Translations under genes and position numbers: made by a program
Shown: positions 4,026 through 61,870 of the stretch, piece by piece
Numbering within the stretch: the first letter of the stretch is position 1
Layout: every line of letters begins with the position of its first letter
The notes under the pieces: model-generated
The model's input: only the letters and a program-made list of their open reading frames with translations
What the model was told of the DNA's origin: nothing
Database searches by the model: none
Origin: an uncultured Coriobacteriia bacterium
GTDB taxonomy: Bacteria; Actinomycetota; Coriobacteriia; Anaerosomatales; Anaerosomataceae
Direction of reading: 5' to 3'
Assembly (NCBI GenBank): GCA_927439865.1
Contig: CAKMKD010000021.1
Coordinates: 2,522-66,521 of the forward strand
Length of the DNA: 64,000 nt

Positions 4026-4043
4026 CAGTCGAAAGGGGAGCGC

Positions 4044-6680: not shown

Positions 6681-6712
6681 CACCTGACGTCATTCTCGTG
6701 GTTCATCATGCG

Positions 6713-6740: not shown

Positions 6741-6955
6741 GTGGGACGATACGCACGGCTCCAGGCACGGCCGTGCTTGCCTTTCTATGCAAAGAGCGGG
6801 ACTATTAGGTGTCCGTTTCAAGTCTGTACAAACGGAAGAAGGCTTCGGCCCGAGGGTCGAGTTGGATCGCCAGGGAGGGATGAACGCGCGCGATCGCTGA
6901 AACACTGAGCGGTGCACCAAGAATGTGCGTATGTGTTCCGGAGGGAGGCTGAACA

Positions 6956-8620: not shown

Positions 8621-8733
8621 CGTAGGGTACATATCAAGCGAAAACGTGGGAGGATGCCTTGTGCATCCTCCCACGGATTCCTTCGCAGACCGCACCCGCA
8701 ACCGGCCTATCCCGAACCCAGTTAGGCGCCGCT

Positions 8734-9711: not shown

Positions 9712-9719
9712 GGGCGACG

Positions 9720-10709: not shown

Positions 10710-10712
10710 GCC

Positions 10713-25366: not shown

Positions 25367-26907
25367 CGCCTGAGCCAACGCCAACAGGTCGTCGTATCGA
25401 CGAGAGTCGGGGCGATGATGGACTCATCTCTGGTCGCAGGAGCGAGGTGCGTGACGTAGCGCTCATCGTCATCTTGCTTGCGTCGATCACCATCCTGCAT
25501 CTGTTCACGTCCGCAGCGCCTCAGGCGATGTCGATGCATCTGCTCTACCGCAAGCTGTATTACCTGCCCATCATGTTTGCGGGGTTTGTTTTCGGCCGAC
25601 GAGGCGGATTCATTACTGCGGTCGCGGCGAGCCTGCTGTTCGCCCTGCACGCTACAGTTTCGCTCGGCGGACTCCTCGGCGAGCACATCGACAACCTGTA
25701 CGAAATCGTCATGTATGTGGCGATTGGCGTTATGTTCGGGTGGCTCCGTGACCTCTCCGAAGTCAAGACGCAGGATCTCAGACAACTCAGCAGACAGCTT
25801 GAGGATGCGTACAGAAAGCTCGAGGAACGCGCGATTCAGCTCGTCAACATCCAGGACTACACGCAATCGATCCTGAGGTCGATCACGTCGGGCGTCGTTA
25901 CCGTCGGGCCGGACGGGTCGGTCGCTACTGCGAACCCTGCGGCCGAGAGGATGCTCGGTGTCCGTGAGGTCGACATCGTGCCTCGTCGCATCGGTACGCT
26001 CTTTGCCGACGACTCTGGGCTCGACGACGAGGTCTGGAAGGTGCTCAAAGGGCGGATTCCGAAGTCAGTGAAGGACATGCGACTCGTCACACGAGCCGGT
26101 CGGGTGCTCCACGTGCAGGCGTCGACATCCCGGATGCGTGATGTCGATGGCCGAATCCTCGGCGCAGTTGTCACGGTGGAAGACGTATCCGAGGTCAAGG
26201 CTCTTACCGACCAGCTCATCCGAGCCGACCGGCTGGCGGCCATGGGGGAGCTGACCGCAGGCGTAGCACACGAGGTGCGCAACCCTCTTGGTATCATCAG
26301 AGCATCGGTACAGCTCGTCGAAGAGTCCGGCGCCGATCGTGAACGGGTGCTCGAAGCTACGAGTGTGATCAAGCAGGAAATCGACCGCCTGGATCGGGTG
26401 ATCAAGGCGCTTCTCGATTTTGGTCGACCATCAAAGCCGTACCTTCGACTCACGGATCTCGGCGAAGTCATCGAAGACGTCGTGCTATTCACGAGGCGCT
26501 TCGCAGGGCAGTCGAAGGTGACCATCTCGGCGAAGGATATCGGCTCGCTGCCGAGCATAATGGCGGATCCCGACCAGATGAAGCAGGTGTTCGTCAACCT
26601 CATATCGAACGCCGTGCAGGCTATGGACAGCTCAGGCGGTACCATCTCGGTGAGTGGCAGAAGTGACGAAGGATTCCTCTCGATCGTTGTCTCGGATGAC
26701 GGCCCCGGAATCGCGGAGTCCGAGCTCAAGAAGGTGTTCGATCCGTTCTTCTCAACACGGGACGCAGGAACAGGTCTGGGACTCACGATCGTTCATAGGA
26801 TTCTTGACGAGCACGATGGGCACATAGAAGTCGCGAGTGTTCCGGGGCAGGGGACGACCTTCACAGTGTCGCTCCCCGTGTTCCAGACAGGCGAGGAGGA
26901 TCGATGA
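25363..26907 (+). CDS. Membrane sensor histidine kinase (PAS-HisKA-HATPase, NtrB-like)
   Basis: N-terminal TM bundle, PAS region, H-box HEVRNPL, and N/G boxes (NLISNAVQA, GTGLGL). ATGA overlap with rpoN. Confidence 0.85.
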   Translation: MTPEPTPTGRRIDESRGDDGLISGRRSEVRDVALIVILLASITILHLFTSAAPQAMSMHLLYRKLYYLPIMFAGFVFGRRGGFITAVAASLLFALHATVSLGGLLGEHIDNLYEIVMYVAIGVMFGWLRDLSEVKTQDLRQLSRQLEDAYRKLEERAIQLVNIQDYTQSILRSITSGVVTVGPDGSVATANPAAERMLGVREVDIVPRRIGTLFADDSGLDDEVWKVLKGRIPKSVKDMRLVTRAGRVLHVQASTSRMRDVDGRILGAVVTVEDVSEVKALTDQLIRADRLAAMGELTAGVAHEVRNPLGIIRASVQLVEESGADRERVLEATSVIKQEIDRLDRVIKALLDFGRPSKPYLRLTDLGEVIEDVVLFTRRFAGQSKVTISAKDIGSLPSIMADPDQMKQVFVNLISNAVQAMDSSGGTISVSGRSDEGFLSIVVSDDGPGIAESELKKVFDPFFSTRDAGTGLGLTIVHRILDEHDGHIEVASVPGQGTTFTVSLPVFQTGEEDR

Positions 26908-28253
26908 AGCGGCGCGTACTGATCGCCGACGACGAGAAGAACATGCGGTGGGTGCTCGGCCAGGCGCTGAGCGCCGAGGGCTACGAGATCATCGAGGCAG
27001 CCGACGGCAAGGAAGTCCTTGCGGCGATCGCCGATCAGCCCCCGGAACTCATGGTGCTCGATCACAAGATGCCGGCACCGGATGGCATGGAGGTGCTCCG
27101 ACGCCTCAGGGCGAAAGGGCACACGTTCCCGATCATCATGTTGACCGCTCACGGCAACGTAGCGAGCGCGGTTGAAGCGATGAAGGCGGGCGCGAGCGAG
27201 TACCTCACCAAACCGTTTGACCTCGAAGAGCTGAAGCTCAGCATCGAAAAGGCACTCAAGGTCGGCGATCTTGCCGCGGAAGTGACCCGGTTGCGCGAGG
27301 AGCTCGACCGAGATTACGACGTCTCCGGAATCGTCGCAGCAGATCCGACGATGCTTGCCATTCTCGAGACGACACACAAGGTGGCACCTACGAGTGCGAC
27401 GGTCATGATCTACGGCGAGTCAGGCACGGGCAAAGAGCTCGTCGCACGGGCGCTGCACACGCTCTCGAATCGCGCGAGCAAGCCGTTTGTCTCAGTCAGC
27501 GCTGGCGCACTGCCCGAAACACTTCTCGAAAGTGAGCTATTCGGCTACGAGAAGGGTGCGTTCACCGGGGCGATGCAGGCGAAACCAGGCCGCTTCGAGC
27601 TGGCGAACGGAGGCACGCTCTTCCTCGATGAAATCGGAGATATCACCCCCGGTGTGCAGGTGAAGCTGCTCCGCGTGATGCAGGAGCGGACCTTTGAACG
27701 CCTTGGCGGAACGCGTCCAATCGAGGTCGACGTGCGCGTGGTGGCTGCAACGAACAAGGATCTACAGCAGCTGATCGCGGATGGTCAGTTCCGGGAGGAC
27801 CTTTACTACCGGCTCAACGTGGTGCCGATCACGCTGCCGCCTCTCAGGCAGCGGCCAAGCGAGATTCCGCTCCTGGTTGCACTCTTCCTTGAGAAGCAGA
27901 AGGCCGGCTCCAAGCACATTTCGTCCGAGGCGATGCAGTTGCTCGTCGAGTATCAATGGCCGGGCAACGTTCGCGAGCTCGAGAACACCATCGAGCGGAT
28001 AGCGATCCTCTCGCGCAACGACGAGATCACTGTGGATGATCTGCCCGCCGAGGTACGCTCGGGCGTGGCGATGTGCTCCCCCGGCGAGCGTTGCTTCGTC
28101 CTGCCCGAGGGTGGGCTCGACCTCGAGGAGGTCGAACTGGAGTTTGTGAAACAGGCACTTGAGCGGACTGGCGGCTCGTCCCCCAAAGCGGCCAAGCTCC
28201 TCGGTCTCACCACGAAGACGATCGAGGCGCGCATGGAAAAATTCGGGCTCTGA
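26904..28253 (+). CDS. Sigma-54-dependent response regulator (REC-AAA+-Fis HTH, NtrC family)
   Basis: REC domain, Walker A GESGTGKE, the sigma-54 contact motif GAFTGA, and a C-terminal HTH (AAKLLGLTTKTI). ATGA overlap with the kinase gene. Confidence 0.9.
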   Translation: MKRRVLIADDEKNMRWVLGQALSAEGYEIIEAADGKEVLAAIADQPPELMVLDHKMPAPDGMEVLRRLRAKGHTFPIIMLTAHGNVASAVEAMKAGASEYLTKPFDLEELKLSIEKALKVGDLAAEVTRLREELDRDYDVSGIVAADPTMLAILETTHKVAPTSATVMIYGESGTGKELVARALHTLSNRASKPFVSVSAGALPETLLESELFGYEKGAFTGAMQAKPGRFELANGGTLFLDEIGDITPGVQVKLLRVMQERTFERLGGTRPIEVDVRVVAATNKDLQQLIADGQFREDLYYRLNVVPITLPPLRQRPSEIPLLVALFLEKQKAGSKHISSEAMQLLVEYQWPGNVRELENTIERIAILSRNDEITVDDLPAEVRSGVAMCSPGERCFVLPEGGLDLEEVELEFVKQALERTGGSSPKAAKLLGLTTKTIEARMEKFGL

Positions 28254-35352: not shown

Positions 35353-36837
35353 ATGGCGGTCAAGGATCTGCGGGAGTTCATCACGTTGCTGGAAAGCAGG
35401 GGCGAGTTGCGTCGTGTCTCGGCCGAGCTCGATCCCGTTCTGGAAATCGGCGAAGTGACTGACCGTGTGAGCAAGGCGTTCGGTCCCGGGCTGCTATTCG
35501 AGAATCCGATGGACCGGGAAACCGGCCGGCGCTACTCCATACCGGTGGCGATCAATCTCATGGGGTCCTACGACCGCATGGCATGGGCGATGGGCGTTGA
35601 CGCCGACTCGGGGTCGTGGAAGGACCTGGACGCCGTTGCACGGCGGGTCATGGACAAGCTTCCGCTCGACATGCCGTCGTCGATGAAGGGCAAGCTCGAC
35701 GTGCTGATGGGCCTCAAAGATCTTGCTGGTGCGGGCCCTAAGGAGATTAAGAAGGCCCCATGTCAGGAGGTCGTGCTCAGGGGTGATGACGTCGACCTCG
35801 GCATGCTGCCAATTCTGAAGACCTGGCCTGATGACGGCGGCAGATTCATAACGCTGCCACTTGTTGTCACTGCCGACCTCAAAGGCAAGCTCAACATCGG
35901 CATGTACCGGATGCAGGTCTTCGACAAGAACTCCACCGGAATGCACATCCATGAACACCACGACGGGGCCAGGAACATGCGCGAGCAGTTCGCCGCCGGC
36001 GTTGAGCGGGTCCCAGTGTCAGTTGCCCTCGGAGCCGATCCGGTGACGATCTTCTCGGCCACTGCACCCGTTCCGCCGATTATCGACGAATACCTGTTCA
36101 GCGGGATCCTGCGCGGTGAAAGCGTCGAGGTCGTGAAATGCGTGACGAACGACCTGCTTGTGCCCGCGCATGCGGAGATCATTCTCGAAGGCTACGTCAC
36201 GGCTGGAGAGACGCGGTGGGAGGGTCCCTTCGGCGATCACACGGGGTACTACTCACTTGCCGACGACTTCCCCGTATTCCATGTCGAAGTCATGACGATG
36301 CGCAACGATGCGATCTATCCGGCCACCATTGTCGGCCGGCCACCCATGGAGGACTGCTACATGGGGAAGGCAACCGAGCGGCTCTTCCTGCCTGTGATCA
36401 AGGCGATGATGCCGGAGGTCGTGGACTACGATCTGCCGCTTGAGGGAGTCTTCCACAACTGCGTCATCTTCCAGATCAAGAAGGAGTTTGCCGGGCAGGC
36501 GTTCAGAGTCATGAACTTCGCATGGTCCATGGGACAGATGATGTTCACGAAGTTCGTGATCGTCGTGGACGAAGACGTCGACTGTCATGACTACTCTCAG
36601 GTGGCGTGGCGGTGCTTCAACAACGTCGACCCAAGCAGGGACGTACTCATCAACAAGGGGCCCCTGGACCGGCTCGATCACAGCAGCAACTACCAGTCGT
36701 TCGGCTTCAAGATGGGTATCGATGCGACGAAGCCGCTGCCCGGCGAGGGTCACGAACGCGGCTGGCCGGAAGCACTTGAGATGGACGCACAGGTGAAGGA
36801 GCGCATCGACGAACTGTGGGGGAGTCTCGGACTGTGA
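35353..36837 (+). CDS. ubiD: UbiD-family (prenylated-FMN-dependent) decarboxylase
   Basis: DLREFI..LE..GEL N-terminus, the IGMYRMQV motif, and about 494 aa. The symbol is family-level only. It could be the menaquinone (MqnL-type) enzyme. Confidence 0.85.
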   Translation: MAVKDLREFITLLESRGELRRVSAELDPVLEIGEVTDRVSKAFGPGLLFENPMDRETGRRYSIPVAINLMGSYDRMAWAMGVDADSGSWKDLDAVARRVMDKLPLDMPSSMKGKLDVLMGLKDLAGAGPKEIKKAPCQEVVLRGDDVDLGMLPILKTWPDDGGRFITLPLVVTADLKGKLNIGMYRMQVFDKNSTGMHIHEHHDGARNMREQFAAGVERVPVSVALGADPVTIFSATAPVPPIIDEYLFSGILRGESVEVVKCVTNDLLVPAHAEIILEGYVTAGETRWEGPFGDHTGYYSLADDFPVFHVEVMTMRNDAIYPATIVGRPPMEDCYMGKATERLFLPVIKAMMPEVVDYDLPLEGVFHNCVIFQIKKEFAGQAFRVMNFAWSMGQMMFTKFVIVVDEDVDCHDYSQVAWRCFNNVDPSRDVLINKGPLDRLDHSSNYQSFGFKMGIDATKPLPGEGHERGWPEALEMDAQVKERIDELWGSLGL

Positions 36838-37772
36838 GCAAGCTCGCCGAGAAGGTCCGGATCCTCCTAGAGCTCGTCAAGTTCGAGCACTCGGTGTTCG
36901 CGCTCCCATACGCATACATCGGCGCGCTCTACGGCGCAGCGACAGTGGCCTTCGCGGTGCCGGCCATCTATCCAGCACCCGACCCTGCGCCGACCCCCTG
37001 GGTGACACTCGCCAATTGGCCGACGATTGCCGCAATTGTGTGGATTACTGTTGCCATGGTGGGCGCGCGGGCGTTCGCGTTCGTTCTTAACCGTGCCATA
37101 GACAAGGAGATTGACGCTCGGAATCCCCGCACTGCAGGACGTGCGGTGCCAGCCGGGTTGATCAAGGCGTGGGAACTGTGGCTCTTCGCGGCGTTCATGC
37201 TGGCAGCGTACCTGCATGCCGTGTTCCAGCTTGATCCGATCACCAGGTGGCTCTCGCCGATTCCGCTTGCCGCGTTCGTCGCGTACCCGTACATGAAGCG
37301 GTTCACGCCGCTCTGCCATTACTGGCTCGGGCTCTGTCTCGGTCTCGCTCCCGTGGCCGGGTGGGTGGCTGTGGGCGGGTCGATCACCGCGGTCGCACCC
37401 TGGGTGCTTGGCGCGGCCGTGACGTTGTGGACAGCCGGCTTCGATATGATCTACGCGACTCAGGACGTCACCTGCGACGTTAGAGACGGCATACACAGCA
37501 TGCCCGCAGATATCGGAATTGCCGGCGCGCTCTTACAGACCAGGATTGCACACACGCTCGCGGTCGCTCTACTGCTGGGCGGAGGCATTCTTGCGGGCGC
37601 GGGGTGGCCATGGCATCTCGGTGTCGGTGTGGCAGCAGCACTACTGTGGTATGAGAACAGCATCGTGCGCGCGGACGACCTGTCCCGTGTGAACGCGGCT
37701 TTCTTCCAGGTGAACGGCGTAATCGCGCTCGTCGTGCTGGCGGGCGCGCTCGCCGACCGGCTACTCGGCTAG
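36834..37772 (+). CDS. ubiA: UbiA-family aromatic polyprenyltransferase
   Basis: Nine-TM protein with NRAIDKEIDARNPRT and the second Asp-rich motif region. GTGA overlap with the UbiD-family gene. The symbol is family-level only. Confidence 0.8.
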   Translation: MSKLAEKVRILLELVKFEHSVFALPYAYIGALYGAATVAFAVPAIYPAPDPAPTPWVTLANWPTIAAIVWITVAMVGARAFAFVLNRAIDKEIDARNPRTAGRAVPAGLIKAWELWLFAAFMLAAYLHAVFQLDPITRWLSPIPLAAFVAYPYMKRFTPLCHYWLGLCLGLAPVAGWVAVGGSITAVAPWVLGAAVTLWTAGFDMIYATQDVTCDVRDGIHSMPADIGIAGALLQTRIAHTLAVALLLGGGILAGAGWPWHLGVGVAAALLWYENSIVRADDLSRVNAAFFQVNGVIALVVLAGALADRLLG

Positions 37773-37782
37773 GAGAAGCTCG

Positions 37783-38379
37783 ATGAAACACTACGTCGTG
37801 GTGATAACGGGCGCGTCAGGCTCGGTCTACGGACTTCGGGCGATTGAGCAGCTGCTGACCTCCGGACACGAGGTCTCGCTCGTTGCTACGCCCACCGGCG
37901 CTGAGGTGATGGCGTACGAAACCGGTCTTAGGCTGCCGGAAACCGCCGCAAAGGAGAGTGTGCTCCGCTTCCTTGAACTGCCGCTCGATTCAAGGCTGCG
38001 TGTGGTTGCCGACAGCGATTTGTTCGACGCCGTAGCAAGCGGCTCAAGTGCGGTCGACGGCGTGGTCGTGATCCCGGCTTCCATGGGCTTCGTCGGCTCG
38101 GTTGCGGCCGGCCTCGGCTCGGATCTCGCCGAGCGGGCCGCCGATGTGGCTCTTAAGGAGCGGCGGCCGCTCGTACTGGTCCCGCGTGAGACGCCATTCA
38201 ACCTCATTCACTTGAGGAATCTCACGTCACTTGCTGAGGCTGGCGCCGTGATCGTTCCGGCAATGCCAGCGTTCTATCAGCGCCCCGAGACCCTGGACGA
38301 CATGGTCAATTTCGTGGTGGGCAAGGCGCTTGATGTGCTGGGCGTGGAGCATCAGCTGTTTCCTCGCTGGCGGGAGTAG
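37783..38379 (+). CDS. ubiX: UbiX-family flavin prenyltransferase
   Basis: VVITGASGSVYG N-terminus, about 198 aa, clustered with the UbiD-family gene. Confidence 0.85.
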   Translation: MKHYVVVITGASGSVYGLRAIEQLLTSGHEVSLVATPTGAEVMAYETGLRLPETAAKESVLRFLELPLDSRLRVVADSDLFDAVASGSSAVDGVVVIPASMGFVGSVAAGLGSDLAERAADVALKERRPLVLVPRETPFNLIHLRNLTSLAEAGAVIVPAMPAFYQRPETLDDMVNFVVGKALDVLGVEHQLFPRWRE

Positions 38380-50043: not shown

Positions 50044-50874
50044 TTACAGTCCGAGTGAGGACCTGATGACCGCGAGTAGCTCCGCGTGCAAGGCCGGGTT
50101 TGCGGCACAGACGTCCCGGACGGAGGGCGACCAGTCGCCGCCGTCGAATCCGGTGATGATCGCTCCCGATTCGCGCAGCACGAGCACCCCTGCGGCGAGA
50201 TCCCAGGGCATCAGACCGAACTCCCAGAACGCGTCTGCTCTCCCCGCTGCCACATGGCAGCAGTCGATCGCTGACGAGCCATCGCGGCGGACATCGTGCA
50301 CATCCCGTATGATTCGCTCGAAGACCAGCAGCTGGCGGTCAAGCGTGGTCGTGCGATCGTAAGGAAACCCGGTGATCATGAGCGATTCTGGTATGGTCTG
50401 CGTCGTGGTGCACGTGAGACGCTTGCCATCAAGAAACGCTCCCTGTCCGAGCGATGCCCAGGTGCTCTCTGCGGCGGGCACGTTGCGGACCGCGCCTGCG
50501 ACTGGCTGCCCGTCCCGAAGGCACGCCACGCTGACTGAGTAGCACGGGTATCCGTGAATGAACGATGTGGTTCCGTCGAGCGGGTCGATGACCCAGACCT
50601 CCGGGTCGTCCAACTCCCCGCGGGTCACACCTGCGAGGTCGTAGACCTCCGGTTCCTCCACAACGAAGCGCGCATGCTCGAGTCGTTCGGCAATCGTTCG
50701 GACCACTGCAACGCCTGAGGCGATGTCCGCCTCGGTGACCATATCGAACGTGCTCGACTTCGTGCGAACCTGTCCGAGATTTCCGGCACGCTCGGATAGG
50801 ACGACGCCGCCAGCGCATGCGGCGTCGATCGCTGCCTGGAGCACAGTATCCACGGGGACCACCTCCGGTCGCAT
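50044..50874 (-). CDS. suhB: Inositol monophosphatase family protein
   Basis: WVIDPLDGTTSF and WDLAAG motifs. The symbol is family-level. Confidence 0.8.
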   Translation of the reverse strand: MRPEVVPVDTVLQAAIDAACAGGVVLSERAGNLGQVRTKSSTFDMVTEADIASGVAVVRTIAERLEHARFVVEEPEVYDLAGVTRGELDDPEVWVIDPLDGTTSFIHGYPCYSVSVACLRDGQPVAGAVRNVPAAESTWASLGQGAFLDGKRLTCTTTQTIPESLMITGFPYDRTTTLDRQLLVFERIIRDVHDVRRDGSSAIDCCHVAAGRADAFWEFGLMPWDLAAGVLVLRESGAIITGFDGGDWSPSVRDVCAANPALHAELLAVIRSSLGL

Positions 50875-50990
50875 CGGGTATCCTCAGTGTAGCGATTCGC
50901 GGCGCCGCACGAGCTTCGCGTATCGGCTTCACAGTCAATTCACACAGTCAGGGCATCATCGGTACGTTGAGTCCGAGAGGAAGCGGGTGT

Positions 50991-51677
50991 GTGGTGAGCA
51001 GAACCGTGCTCGTCGTTGATGACAACGCGAAGATCGTCGAGGTTCTCTCGGCGTACCTGAAGTCAGAAGGGTTCGATGTCCGCACTGCGTTCGACGGTCC
51101 CTCGGCTGCGAACTCAGTGGCCGAGCAGCGTCCGGATCTGGCATTGCTCGACATCATGCTGCCGGGAATCGACGGCATCGAGCTCACGCGGCGCTTTCAG
51201 CGCGACTACGACCTTCCGGTCATTCTCGTGACGGCAAAGACCGAGGAGATCGACCGACTGATCGGTCTCGAGGTTGGGGCGGATGACTATGTCTCCAAAC
51301 CCTTCAGCCCGCGCGAAGTCGTCGCCCGTGTGAAAGCGGTTCTGCGACGTGTCGACGGCTCGCATCCGATTGATTCGCCACCCGTGATCGAGGTGGATGA
51401 GATGCGAATCGACAACGAGCGACGTGAGGTCACCGTCGCGGGCGTGGTGGTGGAGTTGACGCGCACCGAATTCGAGCTGCTCGGGACGATGGCATCGCAT
51501 CCCGGCCGCGTCTACGGTCGGCTACAGCTGCTCGAGGCCGTCTCGGGCGACGCATTCGAAGGGTACGAGCGCACGATCGACGCGCACGTGAAGAACCTCC
51601 GCAAGAAGATCGGCGATGACCCCAAGAACCCGCGGTATGTGAAGACCGTTTTCGGCGTCGGATACAAGGTGGGCTGA
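50991..51677 (+). CDS. OmpR-family response regulator
   Basis: REC domain (VLVVDDN..., LLDIMLPGIDG, KPF) plus a winged helix (LTRTEFELL..., VFGVGYKV). GTG start after GAGAGGAAG. Confidence 0.9.
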   Translation: MVSRTVLVVDDNAKIVEVLSAYLKSEGFDVRTAFDGPSAANSVAEQRPDLALLDIMLPGIDGIELTRRFQRDYDLPVILVTAKTEEIDRLIGLEVGADDYVSKPFSPREVVARVKAVLRRVDGSHPIDSPPVIEVDEMRIDNERREVTVAGVVVELTRTEFELLGTMASHPGRVYGRLQLLEAVSGDAFEGYERTIDAHVKNLRKKIGDDPKNPRYVKTVFGVGYKVG

Positions 51678-51682
51678 CGCTG

Positions 51683-52819
51683 ATGCGCAATAAGCTCATC
51701 TGGCAGGTCTTCGTCTCCATCCTTGCCGTTTCGCTCGCGTCGATTCTCGTCACCGGAATCATCGCTCGGCGAGCCCTGTCGGCCGCATTCGAAGCGTATC
51801 TGGTGGCGGCACCCACACACATGGGCATCGTTCAAGGGCACGGGGGCATGGGACTCGGCCGCGTCTTCCTCGGCGTGGCAGAGCAGAGCTTCATGAGTGG
51901 TGTGGATCGGGGCATCATGCTCTCAGCGCTCGCGGCGGTTGGATTCGCCGCGCTCGCGGCGCTGCTGCTGGCGCGCTACCTCACCAGGCCGCTGCGGCTG
52001 CTCACCGACGGTGCCAGAGCTGTCGCCCGGGGCGATCTTGAGCACCGGGTTGATGTCGGCGGGCCCGGAGAGGTGAGCGAGCTCGCCGAGGCGTTCAACG
52101 ACATGGCCGGCTCGTTGCAGGGTAGTGAAACAATGCGGCGTCGGCTTGTGAGCGACGTAGCACATGAACTCCGCAATCCGCTCGCTGCGCTCCGTGCGCA
52201 GGCCGAGGCGATGTCGGAGGGCGTCTTGCCGATGACCGGTGAGCGCATGGACTCCATCGTGGAGGACCTGGCGCACCTGTCCCGGATTGTCGGGGACCTG
52301 CAGGAGTTCTCTACCGCTGAGGCCGGCGGACTCCGCTACGATCGTGAGCAGTTCGACCTGTGTGAGCTCGCACGTCGCGAATCCGAGCGAGCAGACCTGC
52401 TCGCTGCCGGCACGGTCTCGATTCTGACCGAGTTTTCAGAACCGGTGTGCATCGTGGAAGCCGACGCCTTCCGCGTGGCACAGGTGCTCCGTAATCTCCT
52501 CGGCAATGCTGTTCGTCACACGACGGAGGGGTCGATTACGGTGCGCGTGGAATCTGTGGACGGCTGGGTTCGGTTGTCCGTGGAGGACACGGGCGAGGGG
52601 ATTCCGGCAGAGGACCTGCCGTTCATCTTCGAGCGCTTCTATCGGGCAGACGCTTCCCGCGCTTCTGCCACAGGCGGCGTGGGGCTCGGCCTGTCAATTT
52701 CCAAGCACATCATCGAGGACCAGGGTGGTCAGGTCTTCGCAACCAGCACCGAAGGCGTTGGCTCCATCGTCGGGTTTGTTCTGCCGGCGGCAGCCGCTGC
52801 GGCCCCCGTAGCGAGCTAG
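51683..52819 (+). CDS. Sensor histidine kinase (TM-HAMP-HisKA-HATPase)
   Basis: Two TM segments, HAMP (EVSELAEAFNDM), H-box HELRNPL, N-box LLGNAVRHT, G-boxes DTGEGI and GGVGLGLS. Confidence 0.9.
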   Translation: MRNKLIWQVFVSILAVSLASILVTGIIARRALSAAFEAYLVAAPTHMGIVQGHGGMGLGRVFLGVAEQSFMSGVDRGIMLSALAAVGFAALAALLLARYLTRPLRLLTDGARAVARGDLEHRVDVGGPGEVSELAEAFNDMAGSLQGSETMRRRLVSDVAHELRNPLAALRAQAEAMSEGVLPMTGERMDSIVEDLAHLSRIVGDLQEFSTAEAGGLRYDREQFDLCELARRESERADLLAAGTVSILTEFSEPVCIVEADAFRVAQVLRNLLGNAVRHTTEGSITVRVESVDGWVRLSVEDTGEGIPAEDLPFIFERFYRADASRASATGGVGLGLSISKHIIEDQGGQVFATSTEGVGSIVGFVLPAAAAAAPVAS

Positions 52820-53492: not shown

Positions 53493-54125
53493 TTAGTGAT
53501 CGGTCTCTTTCCACAGGAAGATGATCTTCGAGGGATTGAGGTTGTAGATGTTCGCCAGGTAAGCGTGGATCATCGTGAACACGATGAACACCCACATCAT
53601 GAAGTAGTGGATGATCCGCATGTTCATCGGACCGCCGACCATGTCCAGACCACCGGAGAAGATGCCCATGTTCATCGTGGGCCCGTAGATCGCGAAGCCG
53701 GTGTAGGCCTGCAGGTAGGTGAGCGGAATGGTCGCCAGATACGCGATCTTCTGGAGCGAGCCATACTTCGCCGAGATGACGCCTTCCTTGCGGAAGAACA
53801 GGTAGTACTTCACGGTCTCGAACAGCTGATGCTTGTTCTCCTCCTGCGGCAGCCAGTTCTTGATGTCCGTGTCGACCTCGCGGCTACCGAGCTGTGTCGC
53901 TGTCTTCACGAAGAAGGCGGCGATGATGCGGTAGGTGAGGTTGATGATGATCACGTACATCGCGACGAAGTGCATGCCGCGGGCTACGCCCATGAACCCG
54001 TTGAAGAACGGGAAGTGGATGTAGAAGCCCGAGAAGGCGAGCATGATCATGCATATCAGGTTGATGTAGTGCGTGATCACGAAGACCAGCGGGTGCGCCT
54101 CACGATAGTGAGCGTGGCCTGACAT
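53493..54125 (-). CDS. Ni/Fe-hydrogenase b-type cytochrome subunit
   Basis: Four TM helices with conserved His residues (HYREAHP..., HFVAMY...). Its ATG directly abuts the readthrough stop of the large subunit. Confidence 0.85.
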   Translation of the reverse strand: MSGHAHYREAHPLVFVITHYINLICMIMLAFSGFYIHFPFFNGFMGVARGMHFVAMYVIIINLTYRIIAAFFVKTATQLGSREVDTDIKNWLPQEENKHQLFETVKYYLFFRKEGVISAKYGSLQKIAYLATIPLTYLQAYTGFAIYGPTMNMGIFSGGLDMVGGPMNMRIIHYFMMWVFIVFTMIHAYLANIYNLNPSKIIFLWKETDH

Positions 54126-55781
54126 CTACATCACCCCCAGCGGTGAAGACATGACCGTGGTTCCCTTGCCGGTCGTTGTGTCCACAACGTGGACGGCACA
54201 ACCGATTCAAGGGTCGAAGCTATGAGCGACCTGCAGGATCTCAAGCGGACGCTCGGTGTCGAAGACCGGGGTGCCGACCAGAGCCTGCTCCATCGGGCCA
54301 AGGACGCCCTTGTCGTCGCGCGGTGCGATGTCCCAGGTGGTCGGTGCGACGACCTGGTAGTTCGCGATCTTACCGCCCTTGACTGACATCCAGTGACCAA
54401 CGGAGCCGCGGGGAGCTTCCCAGAGACCGGCGCCTTCGCCGTCGGACCCACGTGCGGTCACGAAGTAGTCGCTGTCGCCGCCCTTGATGGCGCCGATGAG
54501 CTCGTTGACCCACTCGACCGTCCACTGGGCAACGACTGCTGTCTCGAGGTTACGAGCAGCGATGCGGCCGAGCAGAGAGACGAGAACCGTCGGAGGCAAC
54601 GTTGCGCCGGCGGCCTTGCTGAGCGCGGCGAGCGCGACGTCGATGATCTCCACAACCGGCTTCACGCCGCTGAGGTAGCCGACGAGCATGCGGGAGAGCG
54701 GACCGACCTCAGCCGGGAGATCCTTGCAGCGAGCGGCCTTGCCCCACGTGTACTTGCCGTCAACGCTGTACTCCTCGTACTTCGCCTCGGTCTTGCCCTT
54801 GTCAGGCGTAAGACCGGTGGTCTTGTCGTCATACCACGAGTGGGCGACGTACTCGGTGACATCCTCGGGGCCGACCTTGTCGACCGTGAGGCCCTTGGCG
54901 CTCTCGATGAAGCCGCGAGGCAGGGAGCGCTTGTAGGGGTCGTTGTCGGCGGCCTCGAAGACGCCCCACGACAGGAAGTTGCCGCAGCCGCCACCGAAGG
55001 AGGCAGCGCCGAGCAGGAACGGTGCGATTGCGAGCGTGTCCGGGATGAGCGCGGTATCGACGAAGTTCTTGACCGCGAGAAGGCGGAAGAGGATGTCGTC
55101 GAGCTTCTGCTCGGTCGGAACGAACGCGGTACCACCCGGGATCGATGTCATCGGGTGCGGGAACTTGCCGCTCATGATGGCGATGATCTCGGCCGCAACA
55201 GCCTGCATCTCGAGAGCCTCGAGGTAGTGGGCGGTTGCGATCAGGTCAAGCTCCGGCGGAAGCACATAGCCGGGGTGGTCGAAGTAGTGACCGGTGAAGA
55301 TGGAGAGCTGGCCATTCTCGGCAAACGCAGCCAGACGCTTCTGGACTGCGCCGAAGTCGGCTACGCGCGTACCTGCAGCCTCGGCGAGCGCGTACGTGTC
55401 AGCGATGTTCGCCTTGAGGGCGTTCAGCGGGTTCACGTAGTCGAGCGCCGTGAGGGTGTAGAACCACAGGATGTGGCTGTGCAGATACTGTGCGCCCTCG
55501 ATGATGTTGCGGATGATGCGCGCATTGTTCGGGATCGTGATGCCCAGAGCCTGCTCCGTGGACTGTGCTGAAGCGTGGCTATGAGAAATCGGGCAAACAC
55601 CGCAGATGCGCTGGGAGACCCAGAACGCATCCTCGGGGTGGCGATCCTGCAAAACGAGCTCCATGCCGCGCCACAGCGTACCTGATACCCAGGCGTCGGT
55701 TACCTTGCCGTTTTCAACCTCAACCTCGACACGCAGGTGACCTTCGATTCGGGTCAACGGATCAACAACGGTGCGAGCCAC
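54126..55781 (-). CDS. [NiFeSe]-type hydrogenase large subunit with in-frame TGA (selenocysteine) at 54209-54207
   Basis: N-terminal RIEGH and RICGVC motifs. The ORF track stops at ...HSFDP-TGA. Readthrough gives DP-U-IGCAVH plus a 20-aa protease-cleaved-type tail and a TAG at 54128-54126. Confidence 0.75.
54173..54205 (-). promoter_or_regulatory. SECIS-like mRNA hairpin downstream of the hydrogenase TGA
   Basis: Lower stem UCG(G)UUGU/ACAACGA, 3-nt bulge GCC, upper stem GUCCAC/GUGGAC, apical GUU. The upper stem starts 12 nt after the UGA. Confidence 0.6.
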
Positions 55782-57004
55782 TATTTATCGCCTCCCTTCT
55801 TTGCTCCGCGCTTACGGTCGTACGCCTTCGCCGTCTCCATGGGAGGACCGTCGCCAACGCGACCGGCGGCTTTCATGCCGAGGCCGTGCGCAACGAGTGC
55901 AGCGGCTGCGACGCCGCCGACGACTGCACCAACGGTACCGGGCTGGACGTTGCCCAGCGCGCCACCGAGCTGCATGTCAGACATACGCATGAGGAACGGT
56001 GCGTTGTTATCGACCCAGTTGAGTCCACCACAGCCGATGCACGGGCTGCCAGCTTCGACACACCAGCTAACGCGGCGGTTCCAGCGGGTGACCGGGCACT
56101 GCGTGAACGTCTGGGGACCCTTGCAGCCAACCTTGTAGAGGCAGTAGCCCATGGCCTCCTGCTCGCTGCCGAGCACGTCAACGAACTCGCCGTTCTCGAA
56201 ATGACCACGACGCGGGCAGTTGTCGTGGATGCTCTGGCCGTAGATGCCGGCAGGCATGAGAAGGCTGACCGAGGCATCGGTTACCTCATCCGCGTACTCA
56301 CGCGTGACCCACTTCGTGGCGGCGACGAACTTGTCGACGTCACGGTCGGCCACGAGCAGCAGCTGGACGACCATCGCAACGATCCACTCCGGGTTGACCG
56401 GGCAGGTGGGAAGGTTGACGACGGGGGTCTTGATGTTCTGCTTCTGCAGCCATGCGGCAACACCTGTTGCTCCGGCAGGGTTCGGGTGGGCCTTGACCCA
56501 GCCACCGTCAACCGCGCACGAGCCAACCGCGATGACCGCGAGGGCGTTCGATGCGACCTCTTCAAGAATCGCAAGGCCGGTCTTGTCGGGGGTTCCGGCG
56601 GTCTGAGCGCGACCCTCGAAGCCCGTCATGACAGAGCCCTCATAGATGACGATATAGCCGCCCTCTTCGACTCTCTTGGTGATGTTGTGCTCGGCCTGCG
56701 TTCCGGCCGTCGCCATGATCGTCTCGAAGTATTCGAATGACAGGTAATCGAGGACGATCGTTGCGACGTCGGGCGAATCGACCTGAGCGATCGACTCGGT
56801 GCAGCCGGTGCACGAACCGCCGTTGATCCACAGAGCGGGCAGAAGCTTCTGCGCCCCCTCCAGTGCGGCGGCGATCTGAGGAGCCATCGTCTCGGACAAC
56901 CCGAGCATCGCGGCTACGGAGCCGCAATACTTGAGGAAGTCGCGACGGGTCACGCCACGGACCTCAAGCAGGTCGTGCAGCGCGCCGTGCGCCTCTTGCG
57001 CCAT
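55781..57004 (-). CDS. [NiFe] hydrogenase small subunit with Tat signal and C-terminal membrane anchor
   Basis: Twin-arginine motif TRRDFLKYCG, Fe-S cluster Cys patterns, and a C-terminal hydrophobic helix (VGAVVGGVAAAALVAHGL). ATG 57004 lies 9 nt after AAGGAGG. The ORF-track GTG 57013 abuts the RBS. Confidence 0.9.
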   Translation of the reverse strand: MAQEAHGALHDLLEVRGVTRRDFLKYCGSVAAMLGLSETMAPQIAAALEGAQKLLPALWINGGSCTGCTESIAQVDSPDVATIVLDYLSFEYFETIMATAGTQAEHNITKRVEEGGYIVIYEGSVMTGFEGRAQTAGTPDKTGLAILEEVASNALAVIAVGSCAVDGGWVKAHPNPAGATGVAAWLQKQNIKTPVVNLPTCPVNPEWIVAMVVQLLLVADRDVDKFVAATKWVTREYADEVTDASVSLLMPAGIYGQSIHDNCPRRGHFENGEFVDVLGSEQEAMGYCLYKVGCKGPQTFTQCPVTRWNRRVSWCVEAGSPCIGCGGLNWVDNNAPFLMRMSDMQLGGALGNVQPGTVGAVVGGVAAAALVAHGLGMKAAGRVGDGPPMETAKAYDRKRGAKKGGDK

Positions 57005-57657
57005 GCCATACACCTCCTTGGTGTCGTACAGGAACCAACAGTACTGGCAAAGTACGAGTCTCGTCGGGCTTCAGCCCGACACGTGCGCTATGCGAACGCC
57101 ACTCCTCCTTTCGCGCACAAAGATGGGATACTCTCAGCCGCAAACGGGAATGCGACGACAGCCGTGACCGGTGCGGCGTGGCGTCTCCCGGGGCCTACAG
57201 GAGGAAGAAGCGGCAAGGGCTGCGGCGACGGTGTAGCTGTTCTCACCATCAGATGGGGCAGACCTGCCCGGAGGTTCGATCAAGATGAGCCGATAAGATG
57301 AAAGGGGTCGCAAGATTGCACAGGCATCAAGCGGACATCCTGGGCAGATGTCGCGATCCCGTTTGCTGAGCCCTCCCGCACAGACCAGATGCTGTCCATG
57401 TCCCCCTCGGCTGTGTGCATAGAACACCTGCTGCTCAGTGTAGCAAGAGCGTAACAAGTTCGGAACGTGATTTCTTCGATTACCTTACGAGAGGGATTCT
57501 GCGCGCGTCGCCTGCAACCTGCTAGGATTCACTGAATCGTGCAGGAATTCGGGCACGGATGCCTAATTTCACCTATGAACGCTCTCCTGCGTTCTTCCGC
57601 CCCGGGGAGGAATCCGCTCGTGATCGTCCGTTCTCTACAGCGCGAAGGGTTTTCGGC

Positions 57658-58612: not shown

Positions 58613-58696
58613 GTGAACCCCCGTCGATGTTGCTGGCTAAGGGTGAGGATTCTATCACGTGAGCAGTTCAGGGGCATCGTTGTGCCCGGTGCGTCG

Positions 58697-58747
58697 TTGA
58701 CTCGAAATACCAGGGGGGGTATGCTTCGCGGGTACCCGATGGGGGTA
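58697..58747 (+). promoter_or_regulatory. Sigma-70-like promoter (TTGACT-17-TATGCT) with two tandem CsoR-type operator-like sites
   Basis: ATACCAGGGGGGGTAT at 58707-58722 fills the spacer and the -10 box. TACCC-GAT-GGGGGTA at 58733-58747 lies about at the predicted transcript start. Confidence 0.5.
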
Positions 58748-58798
58748 GAGCGATGTGTCTGCTGTCGGGTCAGGCCCGGCAGGAAGGAATGGATAGCG

Positions 58799-61700
58799 AT
58801 GCCGGTATTGAGCGCGCGGGTTGAGTCAGGGTTGAGGGACATCTTCGGCGACCGGATGCGGACCGATCGGGTTGAACGGAAGCTCTACTCGGCAGACATC
58901 GGGTCGCTACCCAAACTCGTGAAGCCTCTGATGCCGACCGGTGTCGCCGGAGCCGTCGTGCGGCCGAAGACTGAAGAGGAAATTGTCGCTCTCGTCCGGC
59001 TTGCCCGTGCCGAGAAGGTAAGCATCGTGCCTCGCGGGATGTCCACTTCGGGTTACGGTGGCGTCCTGCCGCTGCCCGGCGCGATCGTTGCCGACATCTC
59101 CGGCATGGGAAAGCTTCTCGAGATCGATCACGCCGCCAAGACAGCTCGCGTACAGGCGGGTGCGCTCTGGGAACCGCTCCAGAAGACCTTGAACGCCGAA
59201 GGGTTGGATCTGCGCGTGTACCCCTCGTCCCTGCCGTCATCGACCGTAGCCGGATGGCTTGCGCAGGGTGGCGCCGGGTTCGGCTCTTTCGAGTACGGCT
59301 TCTTCAAGGACAGCGTTCTTGCGGCGCGTGTTGTCGGACCCGACGGAACGGTCACCACATTCACGGGCGTCGAGCTTGAGACGCTTGTTGCCGATGCCGA
59401 GGGAATCACCGGCATCATTACCGAGGTGACCATCGCGCTTCGCGATCTTGAACCTGAGGTGCACCGCGTTCTCACGTTTCCGGTGATTGCTGACTTGCAG
59501 GCCGCTCTGAACGCCATCTCGGTGCAGAAGCTCCCGATCTGGTCGCTCACGTTCCTCAACCCGGAATCGGTACGGCTGAAGCGAACCATTCCGCACCGCC
59601 ACGGTCACCCCTGGGAGATGCGCCACCCCGGCTATGAGCCCGAACTGCCCGAGGCATTCATCGTTGTGATCGCGTACCCCGGTTCCCGACGTGGCGCGAT
59701 TGATACCGCGCTAGGAGCCATTCTCTCGGCGAACAACGGCAGCGAGCTCGACGCTCAGGCCGCGGAGCACGAGTGGGAGCAGCGTTTCGCGCCGATGCGC
59801 CTGAAGCGCGTCGGGCCGTCGATCGTTCCTACTGAGGTCGTCGTTCCGCTTGAGGAACTCGGCGCTGTGCTCGGCGAGATCGACACACGCGTCAAGCAGC
59901 CGTTCGTGCTCGAAGGGATGCTCGGCAAGGGCGACAAGGTCGTGCTGCTCGGGTTCATCCCGCACGACGAGCGCTCCCTGGCGTTCAACCTCGCGTTCGC
60001 GCTGTCGCTTGTTGTCATCAAGATCGCGAAGCAGCATCACGGCGGTGCGTACTCCACCGGGCTCTTCTTCCGTCAGGAGGCCAAGAGCGTTCTCGGCGAG
60101 AAGAAGTATCGGGCACTGGAGGAGTACAAGCGCGCGAACGATCCCGAGAACGTGATGAATCCCAAGAAAGTCCTCGGCACGGGCGCAATAAACGCGCTCA
60201 TGGGCGCTGCGCTTGCGTTCGAACCACTGGTGCGGCCGATCGCCAATGCGGCGAAGGCTCCGACCGGTGATATGGTCGGCGCCAAGGACAAGAACGGTAT
60301 ACCTGCTGATGTCGCCTTCTACAGCTATGCGTGCGCGCAGTGTGGCTACTGCGTGCCCACATGCGAGGAGTACAGCGTTCGCGGATGGATGTCGCATTCG
60401 CCGAGAGGCAAGTACCTCTATCTGCGTGAGGTCATCGAGGGCCGGGAAAAGTTCGACCAGCACATGGTCGATACGTTCCTGGTGTGTACGACCTGCGAGG
60501 TCTGCAACACGCGATGCCAGCTGCAACTGCCGGTGGAGCACTCATGGATGACCATGCGAGGCAAACTGATCCAGGATGAGGGCCGAATGACCTTCCCGCC
60601 ATTCGAGATGATGGCTGCGTCGCTGCGTGGTGAGCTCAACATCTGGGCGGCGAAGAGGGAGAAGCGCGCAGACTGGGTGCCCGAGCACATCAAGCCCAAG
60701 ATCGATGAGACCTCCGACATCCTGTACTTCGCCGGATGCACGGCAAGCTTCGTGAACACCGATGTTGCACAGGCTTCTGTCGAGCTGTTGGACAGGGCCG
60801 GCGTGAAGTTCAACTACATGGGTGAAGATGAGGCGTGCTGTGGCATCCCGATGAAGGTCGCAGGGCGGTGGGACACGTTTGAGGAGATCTACCTGCATAA
60901 CACGTCCGAGGCACGCAAACGTGGCGCGAAGACGATCGTGACCTCGTGTCCGGCATGTGGCCTGGTCTGGAAGGAACTTTACGCGAACCTTGCCGCCGAG
61001 CGCGGTGACGAGTACGAGTTCGAGGTGAAGCACTACTCGGAGCTTGTGGCTGACGCTATCGCCGACGGGTCGCTTGTGTTCGATCACGAGGTAAACAAGA
61101 AGCTGACCTTCCACGACTCGTGTCATATGGGCCGTGCTCAAGGCAACTACGAGCCGCCGCGGGATCTTATCAAGGCCATCCCTGGAGTCGAGTTCGTGGA
61201 GATGGAGCATCACCACGAGGACGCCCTGTGCTGCGGTTCGGTTCTGACGCTCATCGGCGAAACACCGGTGGCGCCGGAGCTTGGCAAAATGCGCCTTGAT
61301 GAGGCGGTCGCGGTTGAGGCGGACGCCATGGTTGCGCTCTGCCCCTGCTGCCAGGTCCAGTTCCGCGACTCGATCGCCAAGAAGGACATCCCGATGGAGG
61401 TCGTCGACCTCGCGCATCTGGCAATGGACGGCCTCGGCATAGCGCATCCGGATCCATCGGCATACGCGAATGAGATGTGGGGCTATTTCGAGAAGTTCAT
61501 CTGGCTAATGAAGCCGGAGTCGATCACCGACATCATGGTCACCCTGCTCCCGGAGATGATGAAGGCGATGCCAACGGGCATGCTCCCGATGATGAAGGCG
61601 GCGCGTGCGGTCCCCGGCGGCCTTGCGGCGATGGGCGCCATGATGCCCGCGATGATGCCGAAGATGTTGCCCGCGATGATGCCGAAGGTCATGCCTGCCA

Positions 61701-61870
61701 TGCTGGTCGAGGTGTCGAGGCGCGTCGGTCCTCTGCCCGAGGACATGGAAGCGCTCATGCCCTCGCTGCTCCCTGAGACGATGGACGCGCTGCTGCCCAA
61801 CATGCTGCCGCTCATCATGGACGACTTCGTACCGAAGATGCTGGAGTACGTGAAGAACGAATTGAAGTAG
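58799..61870 (+). CDS. Fusion oxidoreductase: FAD-binding (GlcD/PCMH-type) dehydrogenase + 2x[4Fe-4S] + 2x CCG (HdrD/GlcF-like) domains + Met/Pro-rich C-terminal module
   Basis: FAD_binding_4 region (VVRPKTEEEIVALVRLA...PRGMSTSGYGG). CxxCxxCxxxC motifs CAQCGYCVPTC and CTTCEVCNTRC. CCG motifs (CCGIPM, CCGSV, CPCCQ). ATG 58799 follows AGGAAGGAA. The ORF-track start at 58613 runs through the promoter and operators. Confidence 0.8.
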   Translation: MPVLSARVESGLRDIFGDRMRTDRVERKLYSADIGSLPKLVKPLMPTGVAGAVVRPKTEEEIVALVRLARAEKVSIVPRGMSTSGYGGVLPLPGAIVADISGMGKLLEIDHAAKTARVQAGALWEPLQKTLNAEGLDLRVYPSSLPSSTVAGWLAQGGAGFGSFEYGFFKDSVLAARVVGPDGTVTTFTGVELETLVADAEGITGIITEVTIALRDLEPEVHRVLTFPVIADLQAALNAISVQKLPIWSLTFLNPESVRLKRTIPHRHGHPWEMRHPGYEPELPEAFIVVIAYPGSRRGAIDTALGAILSANNGSELDAQAAEHEWEQRFAPMRLKRVGPSIVPTEVVVPLEELGAVLGEIDTRVKQPFVLEGMLGKGDKVVLLGFIPHDERSLAFNLAFALSLVVIKIAKQHHGGAYSTGLFFRQEAKSVLGEKKYRALEEYKRANDPENVMNPKKVLGTGAINALMGAALAFEPLVRPIANAAKAPTGDMVGAKDKNGIPADVAFYSYACAQCGYCVPTCEEYSVRGWMSHSPRGKYLYLREVIEGREKFDQHMVDTFLVCTTCEVCNTRCQLQLPVEHSWMTMRGKLIQDEGRMTFPPFEMMAASLRGELNIWAAKREKRADWVPEHIKPKIDETSDILYFAGCTASFVNTDVAQASVELLDRAGVKFNYMGEDEACCGIPMKVAGRWDTFEEIYLHNTSEARKRGAKTIVTSCPACGLVWKELYANLAAERGDEYEFEVKHYSELVADAIADGSLVFDHEVNKKLTFHDSCHMGRAQGNYEPPRDLIKAIPGVEFVEMEHHHEDALCCGSVLTLIGETPVAPELGKMRLDEAVAVEADAMVALCPCCQVQFRDSIAKKDIPMEVVDLAHLAMDGLGIAHPDPSAYANEMWGYFEKFIWLMKPESITDIMVTLLPEMMKAMPTGMLPMMKAARAVPGGLAAMGAMMPAMMPKMLPAMMPKVMPAMLVEVSRRVGPLPEDMEALMPSLLPETMDALLPNMLPLIMDDFVPKMLEYVKNELK

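Follow-up and report, generated by a model that had tools for sequence, protein, structure and literature searches.

Does the gene for the catalytic subunit of a hydrogenase in an uncultured Coriobacteriia bacterium end at the TGA triplet where gene callers end it, or is this triplet read as selenocysteine (Sec), with translation going on through the second half of the nickel site? The gene lies on the minus strand of a stretch of 64,000 nucleotides (referred to here as the window), which corresponds to positions 2,522 to 66,521 of the forward strand of contig CAKMKD010000021.1 (GenBank assembly GCA_927439865.1; Actinomycetota, Coriobacteriia, Anaerosomatales, Anaerosomataceae). The position of the codon, the conservation of the frame behind it, a hairpin confined to genes that carry it and the Sec machinery of relatives favour, with a probability of about 0.9, the reading that the UGA at 54209-54207 specifies selenocysteine and that the product is the catalytic subunit of a [NiFeSe] hydrogenase.

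On the minus strand the gene reads CAG GTC GCT CAT AGC TTC GAC CCT TGA (54209-54207) ATC GGT TGT GCC GTC CAC GTT GTG GAC and remains open as far as GTG ATG TAG (54128-54126), after which the ATG (54125) of a cytochrome b gene follows with no gap. Gene callers end the large subunit at 54207, which yields a product of 524 residues. Conceptual translation across the TGA gives the C-terminus ...LQVAHSFDP-U-IGCAVH-VVDTTTGKGTTVMSSPLGVM-stop, where the TGA takes the position of the first Cys of DPCxxCxxH, and the alignment with Cys homologues is residue for residue: the database protein P0046 reads DPCVACAVHVVEPKTGKACTVLSSPMGVM and enzymes in the PDB read DPCIACGVH. A sequence-only reading of the window had placed the TGA on the first Cys of the C-terminal nickel motif and had followed the frame to a TAG abutting the cytochrome b start; the sequence agrees with both statements, and the alignment with Cys homologues that it recommended as a check shows the match at the nickel motif. 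The [NiFeSe] class is defined by an in-frame UGA at a nickel-ligand Cys (UxxC), and by its sequence the gene would fall within it. Removal of the last 20 residues by cleavage after His531 is predicted from what is known of the family.

Conservation of the codon was followed in an orthologue scan that took one genome per species and returned 21 loci encoding relatives with 64-93% amino acid identity, all of them from metagenome-assembled genomes (MAGs) labelled Coriobacteriia, Anaerosomatales or 'Actinobacteria'. TGA occupies the identical codon in 20/20 of the loci with a recovered C-terminus and is followed by [IV]GC[AG]VH. The frame behind it was compared in 19 sequences (the window, 17 of the 20 orthologous loci and the metagenome locus L023), and each of the 19 has 26 sense codons after the UGA and a TAG at the same codon. 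Variable columns in this segment fall on codon positions 1, 2 and 3 in the ratio 14/8/22, which is the pattern of a translated sequence. Among the 120 best matches in the protein database (63-100% identity), 118 end at ...SFDP, one is a fragment and one is P0046, which at 64% identity is the sole complete homologue of the set; since it has Cys at the site and the same tail, the read-through segment represents the true C-terminus. The refuting case envisaged in the sequence-only reading, namely orthologues that truly end at the TGA and take the CxxCxxH segment from elsewhere, is not represented by any orthologue examined. Genome-wide reassignment of TGA was considered and rejected, because TGA is the stop codon of 21/54 other predicted genes in the window. 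A scan of the window for other selenoprotein genes, in the form of TGA-split open reading frames (ORFs) with coding-like composition on both sides, gave only adjacent genes in the same frame and antisense shadows.

A metagenome scan added 80 more distant loci with 41-66% identity. TGA stands at the site in L023-L028, L050, L074, L079, L090 and L100, and Cys in the remaining loci, including all human-gut Coriobacteriia-type genes, which read DPCTACAVH and have the same cytochrome b gene next to them. Over all loci, the residues that follow the Sec or Cys codon differ as well: Sec forms are nearly always U-x-G-C (the exception, L090, is U-M-A-C) and Cys forms are C-x-A/S-C. The Gly codon of U-x-G-C pairs with CC in the lower stem of the hairpin described below, and the preference for Gly in Sec forms could reflect RNA structure or the space needed by the larger selenium atom.

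Bacterial selenocysteine insertion sequence (SECIS) elements have their apical part some 11 nt downstream of the UGA, with G/U features in the loop. The mRNA of the window gene can form a hairpin in this place (54213-54163), the apical stem-loop of which, GUCCAC-GUU-GUGGAC, is built from the codons of Val530-His531 and Val532-Val533-Asp534, that is, around the protease cleavage site. Beneath it there is a lower (middle) stem of 8 bp with G-U pairs, and an extra outer stem of 6 bp takes in the UGA. The apical stem and the 12-nt spacing are as first read from the sequence, and the lower stem, then given as 7 bp, differs slightly. Folding of the minus-strand hairpin region, another of the proposed checks, gives -28.9 kcal/mol, which is more stable than dinucleotide shuffles (z = -3.1) and more stable than synonymous recodings of the same peptide (z = -3.74, with 0/300 as stable). 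Like the SECIS elements of the Escherichia coli fdhF/fdnG type, the hairpin is a stem-loop within the coding region with G and U in its loop; unlike them it has a different sequence and loop size, and no Rfam model matches it.

The same arrangement recurs wherever the TGA is found. In 27/27 distinct TGA sequences a stem-loop starts 10-12 nt after the UGA, and four apical forms can be recognized: GGUUCA-CGUGAU-UGAACC in most, GUCCAC-GUU-GUGGAC in the clade of the window, GCGUUCA/UGAACGC in L028 and L079, and GUGCA/UGCAC in L100. Uninterrupted stems of 6 bp or longer are present in 26/27 TGA sequences as opposed to 0/51 Cys sequences, and those of 5 bp or longer in 27/27 as opposed to 11/51 (Fisher 1.8e-12); the mean z against synonymous recoding is -1.64 in TGA genes as compared with -0.22 in Cys genes. 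Covariation was evaluated in 20 distinct TGA sequences outside the clade of the window, where 93.6% of the cells of the 7-bp apical helix are paired and compensatory changes occur in 3/7 pairs. The covariation score of this helix is 0.132, compared with 0.028 in shuffles (0/500 shuffles reach 0.132), and in slid-register controls it is zero at offsets from -3 to +2 and 0.022 at +3. When a covariance model was made from the same 20 sequences, its only significant match in the whole window was the site of the hairpin (54156-54215, minus strand), at 41.4 bits with E about 1e-9. Members of the window's clade that had been held out reach 39-48 bits, and no Cys locus exceeds 31 bits. The suggestion that the hairpin resembles a bacterial SECIS element, and the expectation that orthologues would show covariation, are thus both borne out: the spacing is steady, the helix covaries and the stem is confined to TGA genes. 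By position and fold the hairpin qualifies as a SECIS element placed to decode the UGA, with binding by SelB as its putative function.

It is conceivable, yet improbable, that the hairpin is not a SECIS element and either arises incidentally from the conserved peptide or serves the mRNA in stability or in translational coupling to cytochrome b. The stem does consist of codons for conserved residues (AVH and VVD, before and after the cleavage site), similar peptides are found in Cys-type enzymes, such as VHVIEP in 1frf, and a few gut Cys homologues hold a 5-bp stem at the same place; however, where Cys homologues share this peptide or one like it, they encode it with other codons and do not form the stem, as the counts above show, and the closest of them, L022, encodes a near-identical peptide as GTA CAC GTC GTC GAG, which forms no such stem. 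In TGA genes, amino acid changes are also matched by changes on the opposite arm of the stem, from A/P to G/R in L028 and L079 and from E to A along with GTT to GTG in L100. Finally, the hairpin keeps a set distance of 10-12 nt from the UGA, while the start of cytochrome b lies about 50 nt away. With regard to the gut-type Cys homologues, L034, L055 and L059 have a 5-bp GUUCA/UGAAC stem at the SECIS position and covariance-model scores of 22-28 bits; this stem may have been left by an ancestor with Sec or have arisen by chance from low-GC codon use, and a relic is not claimed.

The machinery for Sec synthesis and insertion was located in relatives of the window organism. In the metagenome locus L028 a Se-associated LysR-type regulator is followed by selA, selB, tRNA-Sec and then the hydrogenase genes for the small subunit, the large subunit (with TGA), the cytochrome b and the protease; profile scores are 589 bits for selA (cut-off 268), 374 bits for selB (cut-off 242) and 244 bits for the regulator, the last being just under its cut-off of 250. 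The locus L079 has selA and tRNA-Sec in the same place, and in both loci ARAGORN reports a tRNA-SeC of 97 nt with anticodon UCA at 1.5-3.3 kb from the TGA-type large subunit. Sec machinery and client hydrogenase gene appear to share one genomic neighbourhood in L028 and L079. Closer to the window organism is the congeneric MAG GCA_004348925.1, whose contig RCMX01000001.1 carries L001, the orthologue nearest to the window gene (93% amino acid identity, and 82.7% nucleotide identity over 7.5 collinear kb). Another contig of this MAG, RCMX01000007.1 (locus L107), encodes selD (378 bits), yedF (126), selA (613) and selB (379). The catalytic position of this selD is likewise occupied by an in-frame TGA (KSG-U-AAK), which makes selenophosphate synthetase a selenoprotein in this MAG and gives the organism a second known Sec site. 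Between the selA and selB genes of L107 there is an additional NTP_transf_2/HEPN gene pair. The selD-yedF-selA-selB block recurs in other relatives, once with a tRNA-Sec nearby, and homologues of the L028 SelA are found in Coriobacteriia MAGs, Anaerosomatales MAGs and the cultured Anaerosoma tenue.

These findings bear on a further alternative, in which the hairpin assists in recoding the UGA, with Cys or another residue inserted in place of Sec, for example by a Cys-charged tRNA with a UCA anticodon. Recoding of Sec codons to Cys with SelB-like factors and UCA tRNAs has been described for a few bacteria, and the amino acid carried by a tRNA is not readable by the sequence methods used. Set against this, the relatives hold the full set for Sec synthesis, with selA and selD far above curated cut-offs and yedF present, selD has a UGA of its own at the catalytic position, and the tRNAs adjacent to the hydrogenase genes are classed by ARAGORN as tRNA-SeC of 97 nt; incorporation of a residue other than Sec is accordingly given very little weight. 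The weakest alternative, for which there is next to no room, is that the TGA is a true stop, be it of a decaying or truncated pseudogene or through a sequencing or assembly error for TGC or TGT (a ground on which the sequence-only reading was prepared to fall): gene callers and public annotation do end the protein at ...SFDP and TGA is one base away from TGC and TGT, but the same TGA is found in independent assemblies of many studies (20/20 loci, with 118/120 protein clusters stopping there), the frame behind it stays open for 26 codons with invariant GC.VH ligands and the same TAG in 19/19 sequences, and a TGA-ended product would be without two nickel ligands and the protease recognition end while the protease and cytochrome b of the operon stay intact, so that error and pseudogene are excluded by the conservation of the TGA and of the open frame.

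Several observations weigh against the selenocysteine reading. There is no sel gene and no tRNA-Sec in the 64-kb window, which has only four ordinary tRNAs; selA, selB and selD in particular were not seen among 53 predicted window genes, the translations of which were read by eye and not all profile-searched. The evidence for Sec machinery in the window organism comes from relatives only. The Rfam SECIS family gives no match, neither in the whole window at gathering thresholds nor in the 161-nt region at E up to 10. In the clade of the window the apical loop has only 3 nt (GUU) and the stem lies one base out of step with the more frequent form GGUUCA-CGUGAU-UGAACC, while the conserved peptide AVH-V[VI][DE] dictates part of the hairpin sequence. 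As the apical stem is invariant within this clade it has no covariation signal of its own, and, being also out of register, it is supported by stability, position and analogy instead. In some orthologues (L007, L017) the outer and middle stems are interrupted. RNAalifold, run on the codon alignment, keeps only the outer stem in its consensus fold, because the window clade pairs one base out of register with the others.

With respect to its family, the enzyme has the features of Group 1 respiratory uptake hydrogenases: both nickel motifs (RICGVCPISH and DPUIGCAVH), a small subunit with a twin-arginine translocation (Tat) signal and iron-sulphur (Fe-S) ligands, and a protease. The best NCBIfam match of the large subunit, obtained with the 524-residue query that is short of the last 27 residues, is NF033181 'NiFeSe_hydrog' at 482.9 bits, below its cut-off of 600. 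The HysA/HysB families (NF045518/NF045520) are not reached by the large subunit (388.5 versus 780 bits), the small subunit (229.6 versus 470) or the protease (98.9 versus 190). Such sub-cut-off scores are, we suspect, the reason why automatic annotation leaves the Sec unmarked. Judged by its sequence, the window enzyme would work like a [NiFeSe] hydrogenase, yet it is not an orthologue of HysA.

The periplasmic [NiFeSe] hydrogenases of Desulfovibrionales (HysAB of Desulfovibrio vulgaris Hildenborough, 2WPN/5JSH; the Desulfomicrobium baculatum enzyme, 1CC1/4KL8; HydDB Group 1a) share with the window enzyme the Sec at the first Cys of DPCxxCxxH, a coding-sequence hairpin just past the UGA, a C-terminal extension, a dedicated protease and the Cys at the medial cluster of the small subunit. 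The canonical-type [NiFeSe] genes L100 and the second gene of L088 have hairpins of the same build, GUGCA-CGUG..-UGCAC over the VH codons. The Desulfovibrionales enzymes differ from the window enzyme in that the latter has a cytochrome b subunit, a membrane helix in the small subunit and a 3-nt apical loop, and in that its host is a Gram-positive actinobacterium and not a sulfate reducer. In comparisons with the window protein, the large subunits of solved [NiFeSe] enzymes reach 295-331 bits, whereas Cys-type 1H2A reaches 443 bits. The likeness to the DPUxxCxxH enzymes of Desulfovibrio and Desulfomicrobium that had been drawn from the sequence therefore holds for the Sec site but does not extend to close kinship with HysA, the nearest solved structures being of the Cys type.

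The periplasmic Desulfovibrio [NiFe] hydrogenases of the Cys type are soluble and reduce cytochrome c3. Those of D. vulgaris Miyazaki F (1H2A), D. fructosovorans (1FRF) and D. gigas (2FRV), assigned to Group 1b, are the closest solved enzymes, with full-length matches at 438-443 bits for the best few. Both nickel motifs are the same and the tail, DPCIACGVHVIEPETN, is similar; unlike the window enzyme they have Cys in place of Sec, and Pro in place of Cys at the medial position of the small subunit.

A further counterpart is found in the Group 1i or 'Coriobacteria-type' hydrogenases of gut Eggerthellaceae-type bacteria and of Anaerosoma tenue and Parvivirga hydrogeniphila, which have the same cluster of small subunit, large subunit, cytochrome b and protease. 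Group 1i hydrogenases are attached to the membrane by a cytochrome b whose gene comes after that of the large subunit, and the window has such a gene (54125-53493, Ni_hydr_CYTB). Orthologues in Anaerosomatales MAGs are 64-68% identical to the window protein, and gut-type homologues, with the same neighbouring cytochrome b, are 52-54% identical; the latter differ from the window gene in their Cys (DPCTACAVH) and in lacking a SECIS stem that reaches 6 bp. On these grounds the window protein probably belongs to HydDB Group 1i. The same four-gene cluster was assigned to this group in the description of the first cultured Anaerosomatales, where selenium is unmentioned (PMC9686372), and the HydDB paper gives [NiFeSe] variants for groups 1a, 3a and 3c only.

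In a rough neighbour-joining tree the window gene is placed in an all-Sec clade, the sister of which is the Cys form L022, followed by a Cys-type clade from gut and termite sources. This position beside the gut Coriobacteriia-type genes is a further ground for the probable placement in Group 1i. L100, which is closest to the [NiFeSe] enzyme of D. vulgaris Hildenborough, and L090 carry Sec on separate branches. The tree left out L050 and L074. The closest solved relative of L050 (TGA at 7042) is the Cys-type D. gigas [NiFe] enzyme at 540 bits, not a [NiFeSe] enzyme, and this match suggests that Sec variants also exist in a Group 1b-like lineage. L074 (6212) is another locus with a TGA-type large subunit. 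L088, a single metagenome contig, has two large-subunit genes (at 2148-2207 on the minus strand and at 7783 on the plus strand), one of the Cys type (DPCIACGVH) and one of the Sec type (AFDP-U-LGCAVH) with a CGUGCA/UGCACG hairpin, the Sec-type gene having been detected solely through its covariance-model match.

The coordinates of the hydrogenase genes, their motifs and the sel neighbourhoods of relatives are compiled in Table 1. As the sequence-only reading had proposed, the large subunit is followed in the operon by genes for a cytochrome b and a HyaD-type protease, and the Pfam matches to Ni_hydr_CYTB and HycI agree. Support from NCBIfam is uneven: the small subunit matches hydA (TIGR00391) at 267.8 bits, above the cut-off of 179.5, the maturation protease matches TIGR00072 at 125.7 bits, above 47.45, and the only match of the cytochrome b ORF, TIGR02125 at 94.7 bits, is below 121.5. 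In an alignment with PDB structures, the small subunit carries a Cys in VSWCVEAGSPCIGC; the residue at this position is Pro in 1H2A and 1FRV, and Cys in the [NiFeSe] enzyme 2WPN. As the Pro leaves the medial cluster as 3Fe-4S, the Cys in its place leads to the prediction of a [4Fe-4S] medial cluster.

Table 1. Features of the hydrogenase locus in the window and of sel neighbourhoods in relatives
Feature	Position	Strand	Basis and remarks
Large (catalytic) subunit gene, read through the UGA	54126..55781	-	GTG start at 55781; 551-codon precursor + TAG; Pfam PF00374
N-terminal nickel-binding motif RICGVCPISH (Cys60, Cys63)	55581..55610	-	Translation; positions invariant in alignment A2
In-frame UGA, probable selenocysteine 525, first ligand of the C-terminal motif DP-U-IGC-AVH	54207..54209	-	Sequence and conservation
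C-terminal nickel motif D523-P-U-I-G-C528-A-V-H531	54189..54215	-	Aligns with DPCIACGVH of 1h2a, 1frf
20-residue C-terminal extension VVDTTTGKGTTVMSSPLGVM, predicted to be removed by protease after His531	54129..54188	-	Open frame; same tail in Cys homologue P0046
Full predicted SECIS-like hairpin (outer stem with UGA, middle stem, apical stem-loop)	54163..54213	-	-28.9 kcal/mol fold
Apical stem-loop GUCCAC-GUU-GUGGAC, 12 nt after the UGA, presumed SelB-binding part	54180..54194	-	Sequence, fold, covariance model
Hydrogenase small subunit	55781..57013	-	Tat motif RRDFLK, Fe-S ligands, C-terminal membrane helix; Pfam Oxidored_q6 + NiFe_hyd_SSU_C
b-type cytochrome subunit, 210 aa, ATG directly after the read-through stop	53493..54125	-	Pfam Ni_hydr_CYTB
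Hydrogenase maturation endopeptidase, HyaD/HybD-like, 189 aa	52816..53385	-	Pfam HycI
L028 sel + hydrogenase neighbourhood	3894-11605 of metagenome contig Ga0123357_10004884		selA, selB, tRNA-Sec directly upstream of the operon
L079 sel neighbourhood	6725-11605		selA + tRNA-Sec in the same place as in L028
L107 selD with in-frame TGA at catalytic position (KSG-U-AAK)	4534-5577 of RCMX01000007.1		Second known Sec site, same organism

Other genes of the window were tentatively identified by eye from their translations. At 50817-52819 (plus strand) genes for a response regulator of the OmpR type and a HAMP/HisKA sensor kinase are oriented towards the hydrogenase operon and meet its end, and similar regulator and kinase pairs flank the sel clusters of the relatives L105-L107. 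Divergently upstream of the operon, at 58613-61870 (plus strand), there is a 1085-residue ORF with a domain of FAD (flavin adenine dinucleotide)-linked oxidases, Fe-S motifs, CCG-type Cys motifs and a Met/Pro-rich tail. Farther away are a UbiD/UbiA/UbiX-like trio at 35353-38379 (plus strand) and, at 23972-28253 (plus strand), an rpoN gene upstream of genes for a PAS sensor kinase and an activator of the NtrC type.

The proposed sequence of events, which extends what is known of related systems to this locus, would begin as the ribosome nears the UGA, when SelB in complex with guanosine triphosphate and the charged tRNA (SelB·GTP·Sec-tRNA(Sec)) may bind the apical stem-loop at 54194-54180, 12 nt downstream. 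SelB would hand selenocysteine to the ribosome at the UGA, and translation would melt the hairpin and continue for 26 codons to the TAG. In the resulting protein Sec525 and Cys528, along with Cys60 and Cys63, would ligate the Ni-Fe centre, and the co-encoded HyaD-type protease would trim the last 20 residues after His531. The large subunit would then pair with the Tat-signal small subunit, predicted to hold three [4Fe-4S] clusters, and the complex would be exported by Tat and anchored to the membrane through the C-terminal helix of the small subunit and cytochrome b. Electrons from H2 would probably pass from the Fe-S clusters to haem b and on to the quinone pool.

In the literature, a 2026 review describes [NiFeSe] enzymes as occurring exclusively in sulfate reducers and methanogens. 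Searches of open-access and bioRxiv full text returned no paper that combines NiFeSe with Coriobacteriia-type names, except the HydDB paper itself, and none that combines 'Group 1i' with selenocysteine; within that literature, the remark in the sequence-only reading that the type was not known with such actinobacterial synteny is consistent with what was found. The position of the Sec and the mechanism of its decoding are canonical, and what would be new is the phylum and subgroup and the membrane-bound, cytochrome b-linked context. A wider claim is favoured by a narrow margin: that the subsurface branch (OPB41/Anaerosomatales and allied lineages) of the Coriobacteriia-type Group 1i hydrogenases is uniformly [NiFeSe], the first such case beyond sulfate reducers and methanogens and the first cytochrome b/quinone-wired one in a Gram-positive iron- or sulfur-respirer, and that it forms a single Sec clade with Cys sisters, in which the Cys/Sec switch took place apart from the HysA line of Desulfovibrio.

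[NiFeSe] hydrogenases are prized for their high H2-production activity and their fast recovery from O2. If the reading is true, the class extends to a whole Actinomycetota clade of membrane-bound, cytochrome b-linked enzymes that is common in deep-subsurface and sediment metagenomes. The Sec clade and its Cys sister lineages (L022 and the gut Coriobacteriia) would represent a natural comparison of Sec and Cys within one enzyme type, and cultured relatives (Anaerosoma, Parvivirga) would make the Cys/Sec switch testable by experiment. Database entries cut at ...SFDP (118/120 of the nearest) are without two nickel ligands and would amount to a systematic mis-annotation, so that the metabolism of these organisms has been reconstructed from a wrongly called gene. 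The selenium dependence of H2 oxidation would thus have been overlooked in this group, including in the description of the first cultured Anaerosomatales (PMC9686372).

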